Positions 1-44,548 of a DNA stretch of 64,000 bases are shown here, one piece after another. The stretch comes from Escherichia coli (lineage in GTDB: Bacteria; Pseudomonadota; Gammaproteobacteria; Enterobacterales; Enterobacteriaceae). Where the stretch lies: the NCBI RefSeq assembly GCF_050920415.1, contig NZ_CP169309.1; one strand, given 5' to 3'. A program made the position numbers and the translations under genes. Under the pieces are notes generated by a model. The model had not been told where the DNA came from. It saw nothing but the letters and a program-made list of their open reading frames with translations, and made no database searches. Within the stretch, counting starts at the first letter, position 1, and each line of letters begins with the position of its first letter.

Positions 1-342
1 ACTTAGGACTAACGACGTTTCAACACAGGTTCGGGTTTACTCATCTCACTGTATCTCACATAGGATCAGATCTCGTCTGATCGTTCCCCCTGCGCTCACT
101 ACCATGGCTCTTTACCACAGCAGCCGGGGTTGTTTGGGACCGACTTCCGACAGCAGATCCCGGTGGGCCTGCCACCATCTCTTCACAAGCTTATGCTTAT
201 TACATGCAAAACGTCCCGTTTTGCATCTTTGTGCCTACGGCACACGATGATCTTTCCCTGTACCACCTCCTCAGGAAGTGGTTTAAGGTTAATAACAAAA
301 ATACCAATCATTTTAATAAAATATGACGAGTATTTATTTTCA

Positions 343-615
343 TTATATTTTAAAGCATCCTAGCCCCTGCGATGCTCGCCATCGTTTTAACTCATCAACA
401 ATCCCTTGGGGACTATCTTCTCTATCTTCAGATGGATAGAATATCAAATCACTACCATCTGGGTGCTGAGTGATTCTAATAAAATGACTTACAAGATCAT
501 CAATAAACTTCGACAATTTATCGCCATGCAATTCCTCAGGTGGTTCAAAAAAATTATTTAGAAGTTCGATAAATTCATCTTCCGTATAATCTTCTAGATT
601 ATTTTTAAACTCCAT
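343..615 (-). CDS. Colicin-DNase-type immunity protein (Im7/Im9-like), 90 aa; candidate cognate immunity for the VgrG-fused DNase
   Basis: Translation MEFKNNLEDYTEDEFIELL...HPDGSDLIFYP...DSPQGIVDELKRWRA shares, from memory, the DYTE-EF, HPSGSDLIYYP and DSPSGIV..WRA motifs of Im9/Im7. AGGAGG Shine-Dalgarno 6 nt before the ATG; start lies 14 nt after the vgrG stop; AT-rich codon usage. Confidence 0.85.
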   Translation of the reverse strand: MEFKNNLEDYTEDEFIELLNNFFEPPEELHGDKLSKFIDDLVSHFIRITQHPDGSDLIFYPSEDREDSPQGIVDELKRWRASQGLGCFKI

Positions 616-629
616 TACTACCTCCTTTT

Positions 630-3600
630 TTATTTATGCAATCGTATGTGGTTTTTAGGTGTGTTTACTCTAAGATTATCAATATCATAGACTTCTCCCC
701 CATATTGGATTTCGTCAATATGATGAATTTCAAATGTACCTCGCCCCCCAACTCTTTGTCTTGATATAGTATAAGGTGCGCGTCCACGCTTTATCAACGT
801 TTGGTTAGCTTTATTAAATTGGCTCAATAGTTCTGGACATTCACCTACAGCAGTCCAGAAAGCTGCCCTGAATTCATCAAAATTGTTAAATGACTTACTC
901 CGAAGTTTATTTGCGACCTGTTGTGGAATTGGCACTCCTAAGCTTTTCCCCGCCTGCGACAGCCATCTTCCTGTACCTGCTAACACCTCCCCCTTACCTG
1001 TTACTGTTCCCGCTTCATCCCTTGCAGTTTTCAGATACACATATATTGGTGTTAATTCCGCACCGTCAGGAAAGACAAGTATCCAGTCATTAAAATTTCG
1101 CTCCTCCGGCATTGGAGAAGGCGGCGTGGTGATATCTGTTTTTTCATCGGGTATCGGATTAACATAAATATCAGGTAGATCAACTGGTTCGACAGGAGTT
1201 CCGGTGTGTATGGGCTGCTCTGAACCTTCTGGCTTTGCAGGCGTCCAAAATATTTTTGGTCCCGAATCAGACACAGGTGAAAATTCATAACGGGAAAATT
1301 CCTTATTCCACTCCATCAATGCTACCCGAACACCTTCAAGTTCCGAACCTGCGGGTGTGTGGTATCCGTATGTTCTCAATTCACCAGCAGTATTCCGCTG
1401 AAAGAGAAAGCGCGCCCGCGTAGCTGCCGTCTCTCCAGATTGCGCTTTACGACGTAGCTCATTTTCGAGCCACTGTTCATCCCGTCCAGGAACTTTATCA
1501 CTACCTTCACCGGCAGGTATTGGATATAGTGCTGATACTAGAACACCAAGGGCTGGCACCGTTTTTGATACACTTAAAAAACCTTCTCCACCCCATGCCC
1601 CTAATGTTCCCCATACGCGAGTTAAAACTCCCGCAGACTGTTCCGCCGCTAGTGGAACCGCAACACCCGCTGACGCAACTGTCATTTCCCCCGTCAGTGA
1701 GTTCGCTCCTGAAGTTTTTTTTGCTGACTGCGCAAGTTGCTCCACTTCATCGTCATGATAGTGTGTACCATAGCCGCAACAGTCATCCTCCACTGGCTGG
1801 GCAAATAGAGCCATATCACCAAAATGTTTCGATGGCTCCATGGTCGTACCAGCATCAGTGCAGCCTTTCTCCTTCAGACAAGATTTTGCGTATACAGGAA
1901 TTACCAGTTCATCTGAATCGTCCTTGTCTTCTTCTCCACCTTCTGATTCATCCTCATCACTAGGCTCTCCGTCATTCCCGCCGCCAGCATTCCCTCTGTC
2001 ATACTGCTCGTCAGCCAGAGCGTCCATAACTGCCGGTTGTAGTGTATTTATCGGCGTCCCCGGACTGCCCCCGCCATTCAGATTTATTTTCGGTCCGACA
2101 ATATCCACACCACCAGAATGAACGACCACAAACGAGCCCCCCACCTTCAGGCTTATCCGGCTGCTGCTCTCCAGCACGATATCCCCGTCCACCTTGATCC
2201 CCAGCGCGCCACTCACCTTCTCCGCCAGGTCGCCCTTCACCTCCAGACTGTGCGTTCCCTCCACCAGACTGATATGGTTCCCCGTCGTCTTATGCTCCTG
2301 CTTCCCTTCCACCGTCACTTTACGGTCGTTTCTGACATACAGGCCGTCATCGTGACTCACGCTCACCGTCCGGTCATTCGTCACCTTCAGCGTCTGGTCA
2401 TTACGTACCGTTATGCGCCGGTCGTTCGCCACCGTGATACTCTGGTCGTGACCCCCTTCTTTTCTGGTGCCGACCTCAACCGTCTGCCCCTTCACCACCC
2501 TTATCTTCTGGTCGTTACCGATGGTCTCCGTATGGTCATGCTTCACGTCCGTCCGCCGGTCGTTAAGCACCTCCGTGTCCATGTTCTTCTGCGCGTGGAT
2601 ATACACCTGCTCACTGTCCGTCGCATCCTCGAAACGCAGTTCATTAAAGCCGCTTCCTTTATAGGTCTTCGAGCGGATGGTCATCTGCGTCCGCGTGCCC
2701 GGTAAATCCCCCGGTGAACGGTTGTCCTCATGGTATGTCCGCCCCGTCACAATGGGCTGGTCCGGGTCGCCGTTCAGAAAGTCCACTATCACTTCCTGAC
2801 CCACACGCGGTATCGCCAGATTGCCGAACCCCGGTCCCGCCCATGCCTGCGACACCCGTATCCAGCATGAACTCTCCTCCGTCATCCCGTGATAACGGTC
2901 CCAGTGAAACTTCACCCGTACCCGGCCATGTTCGTCGCAGAATATCTCCTCGCCCTTCGGCCCGGTCACAATGGCACTCTGCGGGCCGTCCACCTTCGGC
3001 TTCGGCAGCGGCGCGTGACGCCACGTCCTGTCTGCCGGTATCACCTCAAACTGATTGCTCAGTGTCGTCCCTTCACCGTGACTCCCGTGCAGCGCCTGCG
3101 GCTGTTCTCCCCGCAGTGTGCTTCCCACAACCTGCCATTCCCGGTTCAGCGTCCCTGACGGATGGCCCGTCAGCCGGAACCGCGTTCCCGGCCACAGTCG
3201 CGCCGTGTTACACACCCCGCTCGCCGTCTCCGCCCCGTTCCGCCACCCTTCCGTCTGGTAACGCGCAAAATCCTGGCCATGCTGCTCATCCTTGAAACGC
3301 CCCGGATAATCAAATATCTCGTACTGCGTTCCCTGCCCGTTCAGGCTCTCCCCGTCATGGCTGTAGTACCCCGGCCACCCCGGCGTTTTGAACGTATAAT
3401 CCTGCGTCTCCACCGACGCCACGCTTATCTGCGCACGGTAACGGAAGTCGCTGATGTACTCTGTCGTGCCTCCGGTCGTGGTATTCGGGTTAAACGCCAG
3501 CGCCCCCATTCCCGTCAGCCCCGCCACGTCATCACACACCGCCAGCTTCTGTTCCGGCCCGTCCTGACTGCAGCGTTCATAAAAGAAGATACCTTCCTCC

Positions 3601-4085
3601 GCCCACAGCCGGGTCAGGAATGTCAGGTCGCTCTCCCCGTACTGCACGCAGAACTCCCGCGCCGGGTGCGCCTCATAGAACAGCGGCATCCACGCCGTCA
3701 CCCCGTTCTCTCTCAGAAGCTGTGCTGATATCGTCCCTATGTCCTGCTGCTGGAAGATACGGAAGTTCTGCCGTAACCCTGCCCGCCACAGCGGCGGGCT
3801 GATGCTCAGGGAATAACGCATCTGCCAGTCGTTGTTCTCACCGAGCTGCACCTCCGTCACGATACCGCTGACGTAACGCTGCGGGATATCACCCTGCCAG
3901 ACCGTCAGCACCGCGCTCTTCTCCAGAAAATCCTCCGCCGTCAGGTCAGACAGCCCGCTGGCGATATCCACATCCAGGATGAACGGCGTGCAGTGGTGCT
4001 GGTACAGACGGAAGCTCACCACCGCCGTCGCCATCTCCACGATACCGGCCACCGACAGCGTGAAACGTAATCCTTCTGAGGACAT
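630..4085 (-). CDS. vgrG: Evolved VgrG (T6SS spike, gp27/gp5-like core) with about 430 aa C-terminal extension ending in a colicin E9-like HNH DNase domain
   Basis: Six-frame ORF 630..4118 (1162 aa). N-terminus MSSEGLRFTL... is VgrG-like, so the likely start is the ATG at 4085 with a GGGG motif upstream (ORF-track alternative 4118). The middle has gp5-type repeats (VANDRRITVRNDQTLKVTNDRTVSV...). The C-terminus ...FDEFRAAFW...RQRVGGRGTFEIHHIDEIQYGGEVYDIDNLRVNTPKNHIRLHK matches the colicin E9/E7 DNase H-N-H motif by eye. Confidence 0.88.
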   Translation of the reverse strand: MSSEGLRFTLSVAGIVEMATAVVSFRLYQHHCTPFILDVDIASGLSDLTAEDFLEKSAVLTVWQGDIPQRYVSGIVTEVQLGENNDWQMRYSLSISPPLWRAGLRQNFRIFQQQDIGTISAQLLRENGVTAWMPLFYEAHPAREFCVQYGESDLTFLTRLWAEEGIFFYERCSQDGPEQKLAVCDDVAGLTGMGALAFNPNTTTGGTTEYISDFRYRAQISVASVETQDYTFKTPGWPGYYSHDGESLNGQGTQYEIFDYPGRFKDEQHGQDFARYQTEGWRNGAETASGVCNTARLWPGTRFRLTGHPSGTLNREWQVVGSTLRGEQPQALHGSHGEGTTLSNQFEVIPADRTWRHAPLPKPKVDGPQSAIVTGPKGEEIFCDEHGRVRVKFHWDRYHGMTEESSCWIRVSQAWAGPGFGNLAIPRVGQEVIVDFLNGDPDQPIVTGRTYHEDNRSPGDLPGTRTQMTIRSKTYKGSGFNELRFEDATDSEQVYIHAQKNMDTEVLNDRRTDVKHDHTETIGNDQKIRVVKGQTVEVGTRKEGGHDQSITVANDRRITVRNDQTLKVTNDRTVSVSHDDGLYVRNDRKVTVEGKQEHKTTGNHISLVEGTHSLEVKGDLAEKVSGALGIKVDGDIVLESSSRISLKVGGSFVVVHSGGVDIVGPKINLNGGGSPGTPINTLQPAVMDALADEQYDRGNAGGGNDGEPSDEDESEGGEEDKDDSDELVIPVYAKSCLKEKGCTDAGTTMEPSKHFGDMALFAQPVEDDCCGYGTHYHDDEVEQLAQSAKKTSGANSLTGEMTVASAGVAVPLAAEQSAGVLTRVWGTLGAWGGEGFLSVSKTVPALGVLVSALYPIPAGEGSDKVPGRDEQWLENELRRKAQSGETAATRARFLFQRNTAGELRTYGYHTPAGSELEGVRVALMEWNKEFSRYEFSPVSDSGPKIFWTPAKPEGSEQPIHTGTPVEPVDLPDIYVNPIPDEKTDITTPPSPMPEERNFNDWILVFPDGAELTPIYVYLKTARDEAGTVTGKGEVLAGTGRWLSQAGKSLGVPIPQQVANKLRSKSFNNFDEFRAAFWTAVGECPELLSQFNKANQTLIKRGRAPYTISRQRVGGRGTFEIHHIDEIQYGGEVYDIDNLRVNTPKNHIRLHK
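633..1004 (-). other. HNH (beta-beta-alpha-metal) colicin-type DNase toxin domain, the last ~124 aa of VgrG
   Basis: HH...N...H arrangement (EIHH, NTPKNH, RLHK) and a preceding KSLGVPIPQQVANKLRSKSFNNFDEFRAAFW segment, collinear with the colicin E9 DNase domain as remembered. About 38% GC by eye, versus about 60% for the VgrG core. Confidence 0.75.
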
Positions 4086-4260
4086 ATAAACCCCATAGCT
4101 ACCGCACTCATGGTGCAAACCATACGGGCTTATAAGAAAGGCTTAAGTGAGATATCTGCCAGATAGCAACTATTAGGAAAATATTTATATATATTTCATG
4201 AATATATATTTCGGTTGGTATAACGGTGTCTAAATATTCCTCTGAACATCTTCCTGATAC

Positions 4261-4298
4261 AAAAAAACCGCCAGCGTTTCCGCTGGCGGTTTTCTTTG
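4261..4298 (-). terminator. Rho-independent terminator downstream of ybfA (bidirectional hairpin), insulating ybfA from the vgrG promoter
   Basis: A-run, then 9-bp perfect stem ccgccagcg/cgctggcgg with tttc loop, then T-run. Confidence 0.75.
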
Positions 4299-4315
4299 AA
4301 CGTAATATTTAGCAA

Positions 4316-4522
4316 TCAGTAAAAATCACCGGTTGCCTTTTCGGCCTGATCCATCCACACCGGTTTATCGCTGGTTTTCGACCAGACGCGGTGCAGGTAG
4401 CTGTAAAAGCGGGCGCGGTCTTTCCAGAAAAGCATGAAAGGCAGCGCCAAAACGCCCGCTGCAACCGCATAAGTACGGCGTAAAAAGATAAGCCATGCAG
4501 GATATTCTCTGTAGAGTTCCAT
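4316..4522 (-). CDS. ybfA: YbfA, DUF2517 small membrane protein (68 aa)
   Basis: Translation [29 protein letters not shown]... matches K-12 YbfA from memory; position adjacent to kdp. Confidence 0.8.
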
Positions 4523-4731
4523 ACTTTTCTCCCCCTTTTGTATCTACCCGGTGAATGGCACCGGAAAAATGAATTTGTTTATCTGATGAAAATAGTACCG
4601 CCTTTTGTGTAATTTTACTACTCATCCGACCACTTATTTTTGCTTATTGATGGTTTATTTACATTCACCCCGTAATTAAGTTACATAAAAGTTAAATTAA
4701 TACTAAACATTAGTTAAATCATGGCTTTTGC

Positions 4732-4800
4732 CATTTTTATACTTTTTTTACACCCCGTCCGCAGATTTTTGCGAAATCTTTGCAGCCAGAATTCTACCCT
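4732..4800 (+). promoter_or_regulatory. kdpFABC promoter region with KdpE-binding site (catttttatactttttttacacccc)
   Basis: T-rich direct-repeat element matching the remembered KdpE operator, about 75-100 nt upstream of kdpF. Confidence 0.55.
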
Positions 4801-34514: not shown

Positions 34515-34952
34515 TTATTGAGCTGCTTGTTGATTCTGATATGCAGTAAGGAAATGTTCCGGGTTTGCCACATCACTGTTTGACAACTCATCACTGTAGG
34601 CCACCGACCAGGTCGCCTGCTCATCCGGAATATGCAGGCTGCCATTCCCCTCTTTCAGGCGTAATAACTCAAAAGATTTGCCCTTAATTACGGCGGTATA
34701 GGATTTTTCACCTTCCTGTAATGCTTTCACTTTACAGCGAAAAATCTGGCCATCGATGTCATTATCAACATGCGATACCTGAATGAGGGCTTCATTAGAG
34801 GCTTTCGGCCCTATCCGCATCATCCACACCACAGCGCCTTCCTGCCCACGATAGCCAAAAACATATTTACCGATTTCCGGTTTGACCGTATCGGCAAACG
34901 CAGATTGCATAAGTAATAACGCACCCATCAGCGCCGTCATAAAACGCAGCAT
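34515..34952 (-). CDS. Hypothetical secreted protein (145 aa, predicted Sec signal peptide); apparently strain-specific
   Basis: ORF MLRFMTALMGALLLMQSAFA|DTVKPE... with a signal-peptide-like N-terminus and AFA cleavage motif. Sits in the asnB-tRNA spacer, which I recall as much shorter in K-12. No homolog recognised. Confidence 0.5.
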   Translation of the reverse strand: MLRFMTALMGALLLMQSAFADTVKPEIGKYVFGYRGQEGAVVWMMRIGPKASNEALIQVSHVDNDIDGQIFRCKVKALQEGEKSYTAVIKGKSFELLRLKEGNGSLHIPDEQATWSVAYSDELSNSDVANPEHFLTAYQNQQAAQ

Positions 34953-35283: not shown

Positions 35284-35360
35284 GGCTACGTAGCTCAGTT
35301 GGTTAGAGCACATCACTCATAATGATGGGGTCACAGGTTCGAATCCCGTCGTAGCCACCA
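35284..35360 (+). tRNA. metT: tRNA-Met (elongator, CAU)
   Basis: ggctacgtagctcag...ctcataat... cloverleaf ending CCA; first gene of the seven-tRNA operon. Confidence 0.85.
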
Positions 35361-35368
35361 TCTTTTTT

Positions 35369-35453
35369 GCGGGAGTGGCGAAATTGGTAGACGCACCAGA
35401 TTTAGGTTCTGGCGCCGCAAGGTGTGCGAGTTCAAGTCTCGCCTCCCGCACCA
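35369..35453 (+). tRNA. leuW: tRNA-Leu (UAG), long variable arm
   Basis: gcgggagtggcgaaattggtag...anticodon loop tttaggt...CCA; 85 nt. Confidence 0.85.
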
Positions 35454-35476
35454 TTCACCAGAAAGCGTTGTACGGA

Positions 35477-35551
35477 TGGGGTATCGCCAAGCGGTAAGGC
35501 ACCGGTTTTTGATACCGGCATTCCCTGGTTCGAATCCAGGTACCCCAGCCA
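35477..35551 (+). tRNA. glnU: tRNA-Gln (UUG)
   Basis: tggggtatcgccaagcggtaagg...anticodon loop ttttgat...CCA. Confidence 0.85.
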
Positions 35552-35585
35552 TCTTCTTCGAGTAAGCGGTTCACCGCCCGGTTAT

Positions 35586-35660
35586 TGGGGTATCGCCAAG
35601 CGGTAAGGCACCGGTTTTTGATACCGGCATTCCCTGGTTCGAATCCAGGTACCCCAGCCA
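35586..35660 (+). tRNA. glnW: tRNA-Gln (UUG), second copy
   Basis: Identical to the previous tRNA-Gln (UUG). Confidence 0.85.
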
Positions 35661-35675
35661 TCGAAGAAACAATCT

Positions 35676-35752
35676 GGCTACGTAGCTCAGTTGGTTAGAG
35701 CACATCACTCATAATGATGGGGTCACAGGTTCGAATCCCGTCGTAGCCACCA
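35676..35752 (+). tRNA. metU: tRNA-Met (elongator, CAU), second copy
   Basis: Identical to the first tRNA-Met. Confidence 0.85.
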
Positions 35753-35800
35753 AATTCTGAATGTGTCGAATGCGTTCGGCAAATTCACAAACCAATTTGT

Positions 35801-35875
35801 TGGGGTATCGCCAAGCGGTAAGGCACCGGATTCTGATTCCGGCATTCCGAGGTTCGAATCCTCGTACCCCAGCCA
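35801..35875 (+). tRNA. glnV: tRNA-Gln (CUG)
   Basis: tggggtatcgccaagcggtaagg...anticodon loop ttctgat...CCA. Confidence 0.85.
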
Positions 35876-35912
35876 ATTTATTCAAGACGCTTACCTTGTA
35901 AGTGCACCCAGT

Positions 35913-35987
35913 TGGGGTATCGCCAAGCGGTAAGGCACCGGATTCTGATTCCGGCATTCCGAGGTTCGAATCCTCGTACCCCAGCCA
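35913..35987 (+). tRNA. glnX: tRNA-Gln (CUG), second copy
   Basis: Identical to the previous tRNA-Gln (CUG). Confidence 0.85.
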
Positions 35988-43470: not shown

Positions 43471-44379
43471 ATGCAATTACGTAAACCTGCCACAGCAATC
43501 CTGGCCCTGGCGCTTTCCGCAGGCCTGGCACAGGCAGATGACGCCGCCCCGGCAGCGGGCAGTACGCTGGACAAAATCGCCAAAAACGGTGTGATTGTCG
43601 TCGGTCACCGTGAATCTTCAGTACCTTTCTCTTATTACGACAATCAGCAAAAAGTGGTGGGTTACTCGCAGGATTACTCCAACGCCATTGTTGAAGCAGT
43701 GAAAAAGAAACTCAACAAACCGGACTTGCAGGTGAAATTGATTCCGATCACCTCACAAAACCGTATTCCGCTGCTGCAAAACGGCACTTTCGATTTTGAA
43801 TGTGGTTCTACCACCAACAATGTCGAACGCCAAAAACAGGCGGCTTTCTCTGACACTATTTTCGTGGTCGGTACGCGCCTGCTGACCAAAAAAGGCGGCG
43901 ATATCAAAGATTTTGCCGACCTGAAAGACAAAGCCGTAGTCGTTACTTCCGGCACTACCTCTGAAGTTTTGCTCAACAAACTGAATGAAGAGCAAAAAAT
44001 GAATATGCGCATCATCAGCGCCAAAGATCACGGTGACTCTTTCCGCACCCTGGAAAGCGGTCGTGCCGTTGCCTTTATGATGGATGACGCTCTGTTAGCC
44101 GGTGAGCGAGCGAAAGCGAAGAAACCAGACAACTGGGAAATCGTCGGCAAGCCGCAGTCTCAGGAAGCCTACGGTTGCATGTTGCGTAAAGACGATCCGC
44201 AGTTCAAAAAGCTGATGGATGACACTATCGCTCAGGTGCAGACCTCCGGTGAAGCGGAAAAATGGTTTGATAAGTGGTTCAAAAATCCAATTCCGCCGAA
44301 AAACCTGAACATGAATTTCGAACTGTCGGACGAAATGAAAGCACTGTTCAAAGAACCGAATGACAAGGCACTGAACTAA
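43471..44379 (+). CDS. gltI: Glutamate/aspartate periplasmic binding protein
   Basis: MQLRKPATAILALALSAGLAQA signal peptide; AAGGAG Shine-Dalgarno; the ORF-track 5' extension is rejected. Confidence 0.95.
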   Translation: MQLRKPATAILALALSAGLAQADDAAPAAGSTLDKIAKNGVIVVGHRESSVPFSYYDNQQKVVGYSQDYSNAIVEAVKKKLNKPDLQVKLIPITSQNRIPLLQNGTFDFECGSTTNNVERQKQAAFSDTIFVVGTRLLTKKGGDIKDFADLKDKAVVVTSGTTSEVLLNKLNEEQKMNMRIISAKDHGDSFRTLESGRAVAFMMDDALLAGERAKAKKPDNWEIVGKPQSQEAYGCMLRKDDPQFKKLMDDTIAQVQTSGEAEKWFDKWFKNPIPPKNLNMNFELSDEMKALFKEPNDKALN

Positions 44380-44384
44380 TTACA

Positions 44385-44536
44385 AGAACCAGGGGCGGAA
44401 ATTCCAGCCCTCTCGATTGTTACGTAGCACGGACAGACTATACGCCTGATGGTCGTTCCCCATCGGGCCTGAAAACCGCAATACGCTGGGTAACAATCTT
44501 CGAGGGTAGCAGTTAACGCTGCTACCCTCTTTTTTC
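44385..44536 (+). ncRNA. sroC: Probable SroC sRNA (gltI 3'UTR / gltI-gltJ spacer-derived), ending in an intrinsic terminator
   Basis: Position and strong terminator (gagggtagcag/ctgctaccctc stem plus T7) match where SroC is remembered to lie; the 5' end is not determinable by eye. Confidence 0.45.
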
Positions 44537-44548
44537 TGGAGTAGATTT

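Follow-up and report, generated by a model that had tools for sequence, protein, structure and literature searches.

A 64,000-nucleotide (nt) stretch of Escherichia coli contig NZ_CP169309.1 (hereafter the window) carries, between ybfA and ybgA, a gene that joins a complete VgrG spike to a DNase of the colicin E9 type, and directly behind it a gene for an Im7/Im9-type immunity protein. On sequence and structure-prediction evidence, the pair is very probably a specialised (or "evolved") VgrG effector of a type VI secretion system (T6SS) with its cognate immunity gene, an auxiliary module lodged in the chromosomal slot that holds rhsC in E. coli K-12. Four outcomes that had been fixed beforehand as reasons to abandon this reading in silico were looked for, and none of the four was observed. 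A first-pass annotation, made from the sequence letters, had proposed an interbacterial DNase toxin delivered as a VgrG fusion, with the Im gene protecting the producer, and the domain, fold and T6SS evidence given below supports that proposal.

The effector gene is, as the first-pass annotation had it, one long minus-strand open reading frame (ORF) encoding a VgrG with a C-terminal extension. Its 3456 nt contain neither a stop nor a frameshift between 4085 and 633, and the toxin domain lies in the same reading frame as the VgrG core, so that toxin and VgrG are joined covalently. The length first given, 1162 amino acids (aa), is correct for an in-frame TTG at 4118, with which the entry in the ORF list (630..4118, minus strand) begins; the likely start of the MSSEGLRFTL protein is the ATG at 4085, which gives 1151 aa, and residues are numbered from this ATG throughout. 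The 1151-aa form is exactly what public records call: the identical product has been deposited as BDI35294.1 and EGE65999.1 (strain STEC_7v), among others. By exact look-up it is found on 24 public contigs from different assemblies, every one of them at the ybfA-ybgA locus and with an identical ORF, and the seven Pfam matches that the contig index holds for the 1151-aa protein all fall on a single product.

Both ends of the protein belong to well-defined families. The N-terminal part has a complete VgrG core, with the gp27-like domain, the OB fold and the gp5 beta-helix all present, and the profile search that had been suggested as a check returned strong matches, among them Phage_GPD at 1e-73 and the VgrG family TIGR03361 of NCBIfam at 583 bits against a cut-off of 186. 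A canonical E. coli VgrG of 743 aa shares 89% identity with it over aa 1-738, and since this collinearity extends to approximately 5 residues from the end of that VgrG, the VgrG part is not truncated. At the other end, the colicin/pyocin DNase family (Col-Pyo_DNase, PF21431) is covered in full (positions 1-124 of 124), the domain aligns with ColE9 DNase chains at 2e-38 (HMMER), and the last 256 residues match klebicin G, colicins E9, E2 and E7, and pyocins S2, S8 and AP41 at 1e-31 to 1e-45. In the HMMER alignment, E9 residues R5, R96 and E100 correspond to R1022, R1115 and E1119; H102 and H103 to H1121 and H1122; and N118, H127 and H131 to N1137, H1146 and H1150. All eight catalytic or metal-binding positions compared are thus conserved, and because each E9 residue maps to an identical one, no metal ligand, general base or DNA-contacting arginine is missing. 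An AlphaFold2 model of the DNase built from 53 homologues has a predicted local distance difference test score (pLDDT) above 90 and superposes on the E9 DNase with a TM score of 0.96 and a root mean square deviation of 0.8 Å (Foldseek). The family match, the ColE9 alignment and the fold match bear out the earlier claim of an HNH motif collinear with that of the DNase colicins, catalytic histidines included, and at the level of these residues the active site is shown to be intact.

The stop codon of the toxin gene and the ATG of the immunity gene are separated by 14 nt (629-616), and the 90-aa ORF that follows behind a perfect AGGAGG is well placed for translation and stands as first described. 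Its product covers Colicin_Pyocin (PF01320) end to end (positions 1-82 of 82; 1.7e-32) and matches Im7 at 4e-25 over residues 1-89, with Im2, Im9, ImAP41 and ImS2 also matching. In this family the hot spot for DNase binding lies in helix III (D51, Y54 and Y55 in Im9; D52, Y55 and Y56 in Im7). The corresponding residues here are D56, F59 and Y60, within the motif LIFY at residues 57-60 (nt 436-447, minus strand). The Im7/Im9 hallmarks that had been read from the sequence therefore hold for the family assignment, but not for the Tyr-Tyr pair of the hot spot, which is Phe-Tyr. The exact immunity protein is found on 110 public contigs by the same kind of look-up. For both proteins the matches lie well outside what chance would give.

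A T6SS that might deliver the effector is encoded elsewhere in the genome. Over the 19.7 kb compared, not one base differs between the window and E. coli MFDS1022581 (NZ_CP169399.1), and MFDS1022581 has a complete T6SS cluster at tRNA-Asp, approximately 640 kb from the module; at that distance, and in the rhsC slot, the name "orphan" given to the module at first is apt. The cluster contains hcp, tssB, tssC, tssE, tssF, tssG, tagH, tssJ, tssK, tssL, tssH, vasI, tssA and tssM, together with a gene for a VasL-domain protein and a second hcp, with intact vgrG/tssI and PAAR genes alongside. With it come several vgrG-PAAR-effector islands, whose products include a Tae4 amidase, an M23-type peptidoglycan DD-metalloendopeptidase and a Tle1-like phospholipase. 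The first VgrG of the cluster shares 94% identity with the module VgrG over aa 1-696; the figure is 98% over aa 1-514 for another, and 94% over aa 1-717 for the orphan VgrG encoded at the rhsD locus. These paralogs diverge essentially in their C-terminal tails only. The pattern is the known "a la carte" one, with the tail of a VgrG specifying the effector; in the module the effector is covalently attached. From these identities we infer that the T6SS of the cluster can probably use the module VgrG. The host genome has at least five further vgrG copies, and several of the islands are interrupted by IS21, IS2 or ISAs1; the Tle1-like phospholipase island includes three DUF3304 genes, and the orphan vgrG at the rhsD slot is followed by unannotated ORFs.

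Between the VgrG and the DNase lies the remainder of a 424-aa cassette, which starts at aa 728 and comprises a junction region, a Pyocin_S domain and the colicin-type HNH DNase. The VgrG core has a GC content of approximately 60%, but the cassette and the immunity gene have 34-45%, a drop that usually marks a polymorphic-toxin tip as swapped. As a polymorphic-toxin unit the cassette is mobile: homologues with 46-57% identity are fused to Hcp (Kluyvera, Citrobacter, Salmonella, E. coli), to PAAR (Pectobacterium, Lonsdalea, Photorhabdus) and to other VgrG types, among them a Siccibacter protein and Klebsiella fragments with PF10106, the VgrG-associated DUF2345 domain. One of the Hcp fusions of E. 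coli has 593 aa, the length reported for Usp. In Hcp-, PAAR- and VgrG-borne homologues alike, the homology begins at the same motif, PVYAKSCLKEKGCTDAG...FAQPVEDDCCGYG, every time; the boundary between carrier and cassette is marked by PVYAKSCLKEKGC...DDCCGYG, also read as PVYAKSCLKEKGCTDAG...DDCCGYG, and the order that follows is a Gly/Ala-rich hydrophobic stretch, Pyocin_S and DNase. The junction carries four invariant cysteines (C736, C742, C769 and C770), and Pfam has no family for aa 728-773 or for the hydrophobic region after it. The Gly/Ala-rich stretch is kept in the homologues, including the VPA1263-type MIX effector from aa ~820 on.

The searches behind these comparisons differ in what they can count. 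A search with the full-length protein was swamped by ordinary VgrGs and gave no full-length match, for the sole reason that a 743-aa VgrG stands as representative for the 1151-aa protein, as the exact look-up showed. For the same reason a search of 1.84 billion representatives with the cassette cannot count VgrG fusions; none of its long matches has a VgrG core, and those long matches that were scanned share the C-terminal Pyocin_S-HNH (PyS-HNH) region only.

The Pyocin_S match (PF06958) spans profile positions 2-139 of 139 directly N-terminal of the nuclease domain, and this part also matches PDB 3MFB at 4e-19. Pyocin_S has been defined as an inner-membrane-translocation (IMT) domain; it is required for the import of pyocin G via FtsH/TonB1 and occurs in 97.6% of the Colicin-DNase effectors in SecReT6 (PMC9040868). 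In an AlphaFold2 model of aa 728-1151 the pLDDT is below 50 over the junction and the hydrophobic region, so no fold can be assigned there. We entertain, as a tentative and rather unlikely idea, that the approximately 145 residues of aa 728-872 are a distinct functional module and not a passive linker. They might form a universal "plug" and recombination joint by means of which one nuclease cassette hops among all three T6SS carriers. Alternatively, they might serve for release or membrane insertion and so pass the IMT-DNase part to the inner membrane of the target.

If the module works as its domains suggest, the trimeric VgrG-DNase would form the spike tip of the host T6SS and carry three copies of the DNase, and contraction of the sheath would push it into a neighboring Gram-negative cell. 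The Pyocin_S/IMT region may then help the DNase to reach the cytoplasm, possibly via FtsH as for nuclease bacteriocins, where the Zn/Mg-dependent H-N-H endonuclease would degrade the chromosomal DNA of the target. The 90-aa Im protein would bind the exosite of the DNase and block it in the producing cell and in its kin.

Features of the module and its immediate flanks, in order of transcription of the effector gene (positions in the window; residues counted from the ATG at 4085)
Feature	Position	Strand	Basis or remarks
ybfA-vgrG intergenic region	4086..4315	-	ybfA intrinsic terminator ~4261-4289, then AT-rich stretch
VgrG-DNase effector ORF	630..4085	-	1151 aa; ATG 4085, stop TAA 632-630
VgrG core and tail, aa 1-727	1905..4085	-	Pfam, TIGR03361
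Phage_GPD (gp27-like), aa 33-328	3102-3989	-	Pfam, 1e-73
Phage_base_V (OB fold), aa 385-451	2733-2933	-	Pfam
Gp5_trimer_C (gp5 beta-helix), aa 468-622	2220-2684	-	Pfam
Acidic Asp/Glu/Gly-rich linker, ~aa 690-727	~1905-2018	-	Hydropathy; follows gp5 beta-helix
Junction motif PVYAKSCLKEKGCTDAG...FAQPVEDDCCGYG, cassette start, aa 728-773	1767..1904	-	Conserved in homologues
Gly/Ala-rich, moderately hydrophobic stretch, aa ~800-858	1512..1688	-	Hydropathy peak 1.5; upstream of Pyocin_S
Pyocin_S (PF06958), aa 878-1017	1035..1454	-	Pfam, 2.9e-31
Colicin/pyocin HNH DNase (Col-Pyo_DNase, PF21431), aa 1026-1151	633..1010	-	Pfam, 6.9e-50
H-N-H motif, E1119...H1150	636-731	-	Alignment to ColE9
AGGAGG ribosome-binding site of immunity gene	621..626	-	5 nt ahead of ATG 615
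Im7/Im9-type DNase immunity gene, 90 aa	343..615	-	PF01320, 1.7e-32
Group II intron, 5' end	1..245	-	Starts GTGTG at 245, runs off window

We surveyed 5426 complete E. coli genomes at megablast sensitivity and found toxin and immunity DNA in four, on the chromosome in every case. It is intact in two of them, both with the module next to ybfA in the rhsC slot: MFDS1022581 and N96, whose toxin part is 100% identical. In ET350 the unit lies between yncG and pptA (the rhsE slot), where it is fused in frame to another allele of vgrG and there is a frameshift early on, and in RMDEC465 it lies between yibH and mtlA, truncated by ISAs1. The toxin/immunity unit thus occurs at three Rhs-type loci and on at least two vgrG alleles. 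The immunity gene accompanies the toxin in all four genomes, ISAs1 sequences border the module in all four, and the other 5422 contain no orphan copy of the immunity gene at this sensitivity.

Several observations weigh against an active effector/immunity module. It is rare (4/5426), and half of the four copies are damaged, by the ET350 frameshift and the RMDEC465 truncation. A promoter scan finds no convincing sigma-70 promoter upstream of vgrG, the Shine-Dalgarno sequence ahead of the ATG at 4085 is weak, and the RefSeq pipeline models the gene as a pseudogene and a separate ORF. The first hot-spot tyrosine of the immunity protein is replaced by phenylalanine, a conservative change with D56 and Y60 kept, and the role given above to the IMT domain in T6SS effectors is one we infer by analogy with nuclease bacteriocins. 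The island also contains debris, namely a remnant of ISAs1 and a group II intron, so that decay of the module is possible. Some of these points would suit a decaying relic, a by-product of Rhs/H-repeat recombination that is no longer expressed or loaded and in which only the immunity gene is selected, as protection against the toxin of others. Two broken copies out of four, the ISAs1 and intron debris directly downstream and the want of a clear promoter would all be expected of it, and the exact immunity protein is found on 110 contigs as against 24 for the exact toxin, numbers that count exact sequences only and so are not a fair comparison of prevalence. A relic, however, is hard to reconcile with 3456 nt free of stops and frameshifts that are identical in 24 contigs, with the 100% identical toxin part of N96, with the retention of every catalytic residue, or with the lack of orphan immunity genes in the megablast survey of the other 5422 complete genomes, and we regard it as improbable.

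A different objection is that there are two genes. In three genomes PGAP/RefSeq splits the identical DNA into a "tssI pseudogene, missing C-terminus" and a 403-aa ORF, annotated as an "S-type pyocin domain-containing protein" (WP_249822543.1); on this model a truncated VgrG pseudogene would be followed by a cargo effector that begins at Met749 and is loaded non-covalently on another VgrG. Free-standing cassette proteins of 405-491 aa do exist in the databases, although many of these entries are probably products of the same annotation split. We regard the RefSeq split as an annotation artefact, because no stop or frameshift separates the parts, the VgrG part can be followed collinearly along a whole 743-aa VgrG and so is not truncated, and Met749 has no Shine-Dalgarno sequence. 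Moreover, Met749 falls inside the conserved cassette block, 21 residues into it and past two of the four invariant cysteines, and other submitters and gene callers call the 1151-aa protein. The two-gene model was accordingly rejected, and we think it very improbable. Colicins E2/E7/E9 and klebicin G share the IMT domain, the DNase domain and the Im gene with the module, which raises the question of whether the product could be a diffusible colicin- or pyocin-like bacteriocin, released by lysis and independent of the T6SS. Its N-terminal 700 aa are those of a VgrG and not a colicin translocation or receptor-binding (T/R) domain, the stretch from the immunity gene to the intron holds no lysis gene, and no LexA-box-like site is present in the ybfA-vgrG intergenic region; for these reasons a soluble bacteriocin was rejected and is excluded for practical purposes. 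The gene is, besides, chromosomal and in an Rhs slot, not on a Col plasmid.

In K-12 the interval between ybfA and ybgA holds rhsC-ybfB-ybfO-ybfC and H-repeat remnants. The homology with K-12 reaches window position 4117, 32 nt ahead of the vgrG start, and 4117-4315 is 96% identical to the K-12 ybfA-rhsC intergenic region; since it runs through the intergenic region, the module sits in the rhsC slot and inherits its upstream region. This gene order and this homology confirm the statement in the first-pass annotation that rhsC is the K-12 neighbor of ybfA here. Whatever drives rhsC in K-12 presumably also drives the VgrG-DNase effector. The single sigma-70-like site in 1-4800 is at 768-797 on the minus strand (TTGATA-18-TATACT), inside the DNase coding region and approximately 150 nt upstream of the immunity start. 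Internal constitutive immunity promoters occur in nuclease-colicin operons, which this site would resemble, but one match is fewer than shuffled sequences give, and the site is therefore only a lead and not evidence.

On the other side of the module, a group II intron starts approximately 100 bp downstream of the immunity gene. Its 5' end, matched by Rfam RF01999 (59-176, minus strand, 93 bits), marks the distal, H-repeat/ISAs1 side of the island. Beyond it, in the identical genome NZ_CP169399.1, come a frameshifted ltrA and a remnant of an ISAs1/H-repeat transposase. The pair of ltrA and ISAs1 recurs in strain N96 and, in the main T6SS cluster, downstream of the island with the Tle1 effector; because of this recurrence the intron appears to travel with, or to target, the H-repeat element that flanks T6SS/Rhs toxin islands.

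The remaining window is ordinary core genome (kdp, speF-potE, pgm, seqA, fur, nag, asnB, a tRNA cluster, and miaB to mrdA). Its ordinary core features include seven tRNA genes clustered at 35284-35984 and the small RNA sroC at 44375-44537 (175 bits), all on the plus strand. A 145-aa "hypothetical protein" (WP_000943486.1; ~34515-34952, minus strand) is encoded between asnB and the metT-leuW-glnUW-metU-glnVX tRNA cluster.

A weapon of this design was already known, and the protein is a rare E. coli example of it. The first-pass annotation had allowed that the arrangement might be uncharacterised; it has in fact been characterised as VgrG-NucSe1 (SARI_02603) with SARI_02602, described in 2009 in SPI-21 of Salmonella enterica subsp. 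arizonae (Blondel et al.; PMC2907695). A 2026 study reports immunity-dependent intraspecies killing by VgrG-NucSe1 and a partial rescue by the immunity protein from the toxicity of its C-terminal region (PMC12992299), the killing being seen in competition assays; Ho et al. (2017), as cited in that study, showed that the V. cholerae T6SS can deliver the C-terminal region. Judged by published domain coordinates, both proteins run from a VgrG core through an S-type pyocin domain to an HNH DNase, with the immunity gene next downstream. VgrG-NucSe1 has 1196 aa (VgrG 26-500, pyocin_S 903-1032, DNase 1060-1196) and a 98-aa immunity protein; the E. coli product has 1151 aa (VgrG 10-519, Pyocin_S 878-1017, DNase 1026-1151) and a 90-aa one. 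They differ in host species and VgrG lineage, and whereas the Salmonella gene lies inside the T6SS cluster of SPI-21, the E. coli module is an orphan approximately 640 kb from its cluster, in the rhsC slot.

More distant relatives combine the same toxin with other carriers. The combination of Pyocin_S with HNH is found at the C-terminus of effectors of the PAAR, Hcp and VgrG kinds, and the PyS-HNH region of VPA1263 cleaves DNA (Fridman et al. 2022, PMC9602870). In a survey of 11,832 genomes, Pyocin_S ranked second in frequency among the Pfam domains of toxins joined covalently to T6SS cores (PMC11148199). Examples with Hcp, PAAR or MIX carriers are the Usp-like Hcp fusions of E. coli (P0206, 593 aa), Ppp1-3 of Enterobacter, VPA1263/Vti2 of Vibrio, and the PAAR-borne fusions of Pectobacterium and Lonsdalea, including the ECA1669 type (PDB 3MFB). 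These effectors share Im-type immunity genes with the module and differ in that the carrier is not a VgrG. The Hcp- and PAAR-borne ones are homologous to it over a cassette of approximately 424 aa that begins at the PVYAKSCLKEKGC junction and ends with the HNH motif at the C-terminus, with the identity given above. The VPA1263-type protein P0274 shares the C-terminal PyS-HNH region only, with 41% identity over aa 820-1151. Assignment to the VPA1263-type MIX effectors (NCBIfam NF047924) was tried and rejected, the match reaching 223 bits as against a curated whole-protein cut-off of 900, for a profile that includes the MIX/LysM N-terminal part, and covering profile positions 420-711 only.

Among the bacteriocins, colicins E2/E7/E8/E9, klebicin G and pyocins S2/AP41 have the same upstream IMT domain. 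The DNase aligns end to end with that of ColE9, at approximately 46% identity in the structural alignment and with an identical catalytic constellation, and the Im protein aligns end to end with Im7. Colicins and pyocins are imported via a receptor and Tol or Ton, whereas the module product would be delivered by a contractile spike; unlike colicins, the module is without a T/R domain, lysis gene, SOS box or plasmid, and the Im hot spot is Phe-Tyr and not Tyr-Tyr. With K-12 rhsC it shares the chromosomal slot and the upstream intergenic region, and with Rhs elements in general the logic of the island, that is, a conserved delivery core, a low-GC toxin tip, an immunity gene and H-repeat/ISAs1 sequences. 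The difference is that the module has no Rhs/YD-repeat shell and its toxin is fused directly to VgrG. We found no paper in the literature on this E. coli protein or on this variant of the ybfA locus.

The module leaves the current understanding of T6SS effectors unchanged, and its value is modest: it contributes an example from E. coli of a colicin-type DNase carried on a VgrG, and it draws attention to a RefSeq mis-split, to the hopping of a cassette between loci and carriers, to an unannotated four-cysteine junction motif and to a favorable case for studying IMT and FtsH. Since RefSeq splits an intact effector, surveys of RefSeq proteins will under-count evolved VgrGs of the VgrG-Pyocin_S-DNase type. 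With both E. coli genetics and the biophysics of ColE9/Im9 well developed, the protein is a convenient system in which to ask whether T6SS-delivered nucleases need the Pyocin_S/IMT domain and FtsH at the inner membrane. The module also shows how toxin/immunity cassettes move among loci and carriers.

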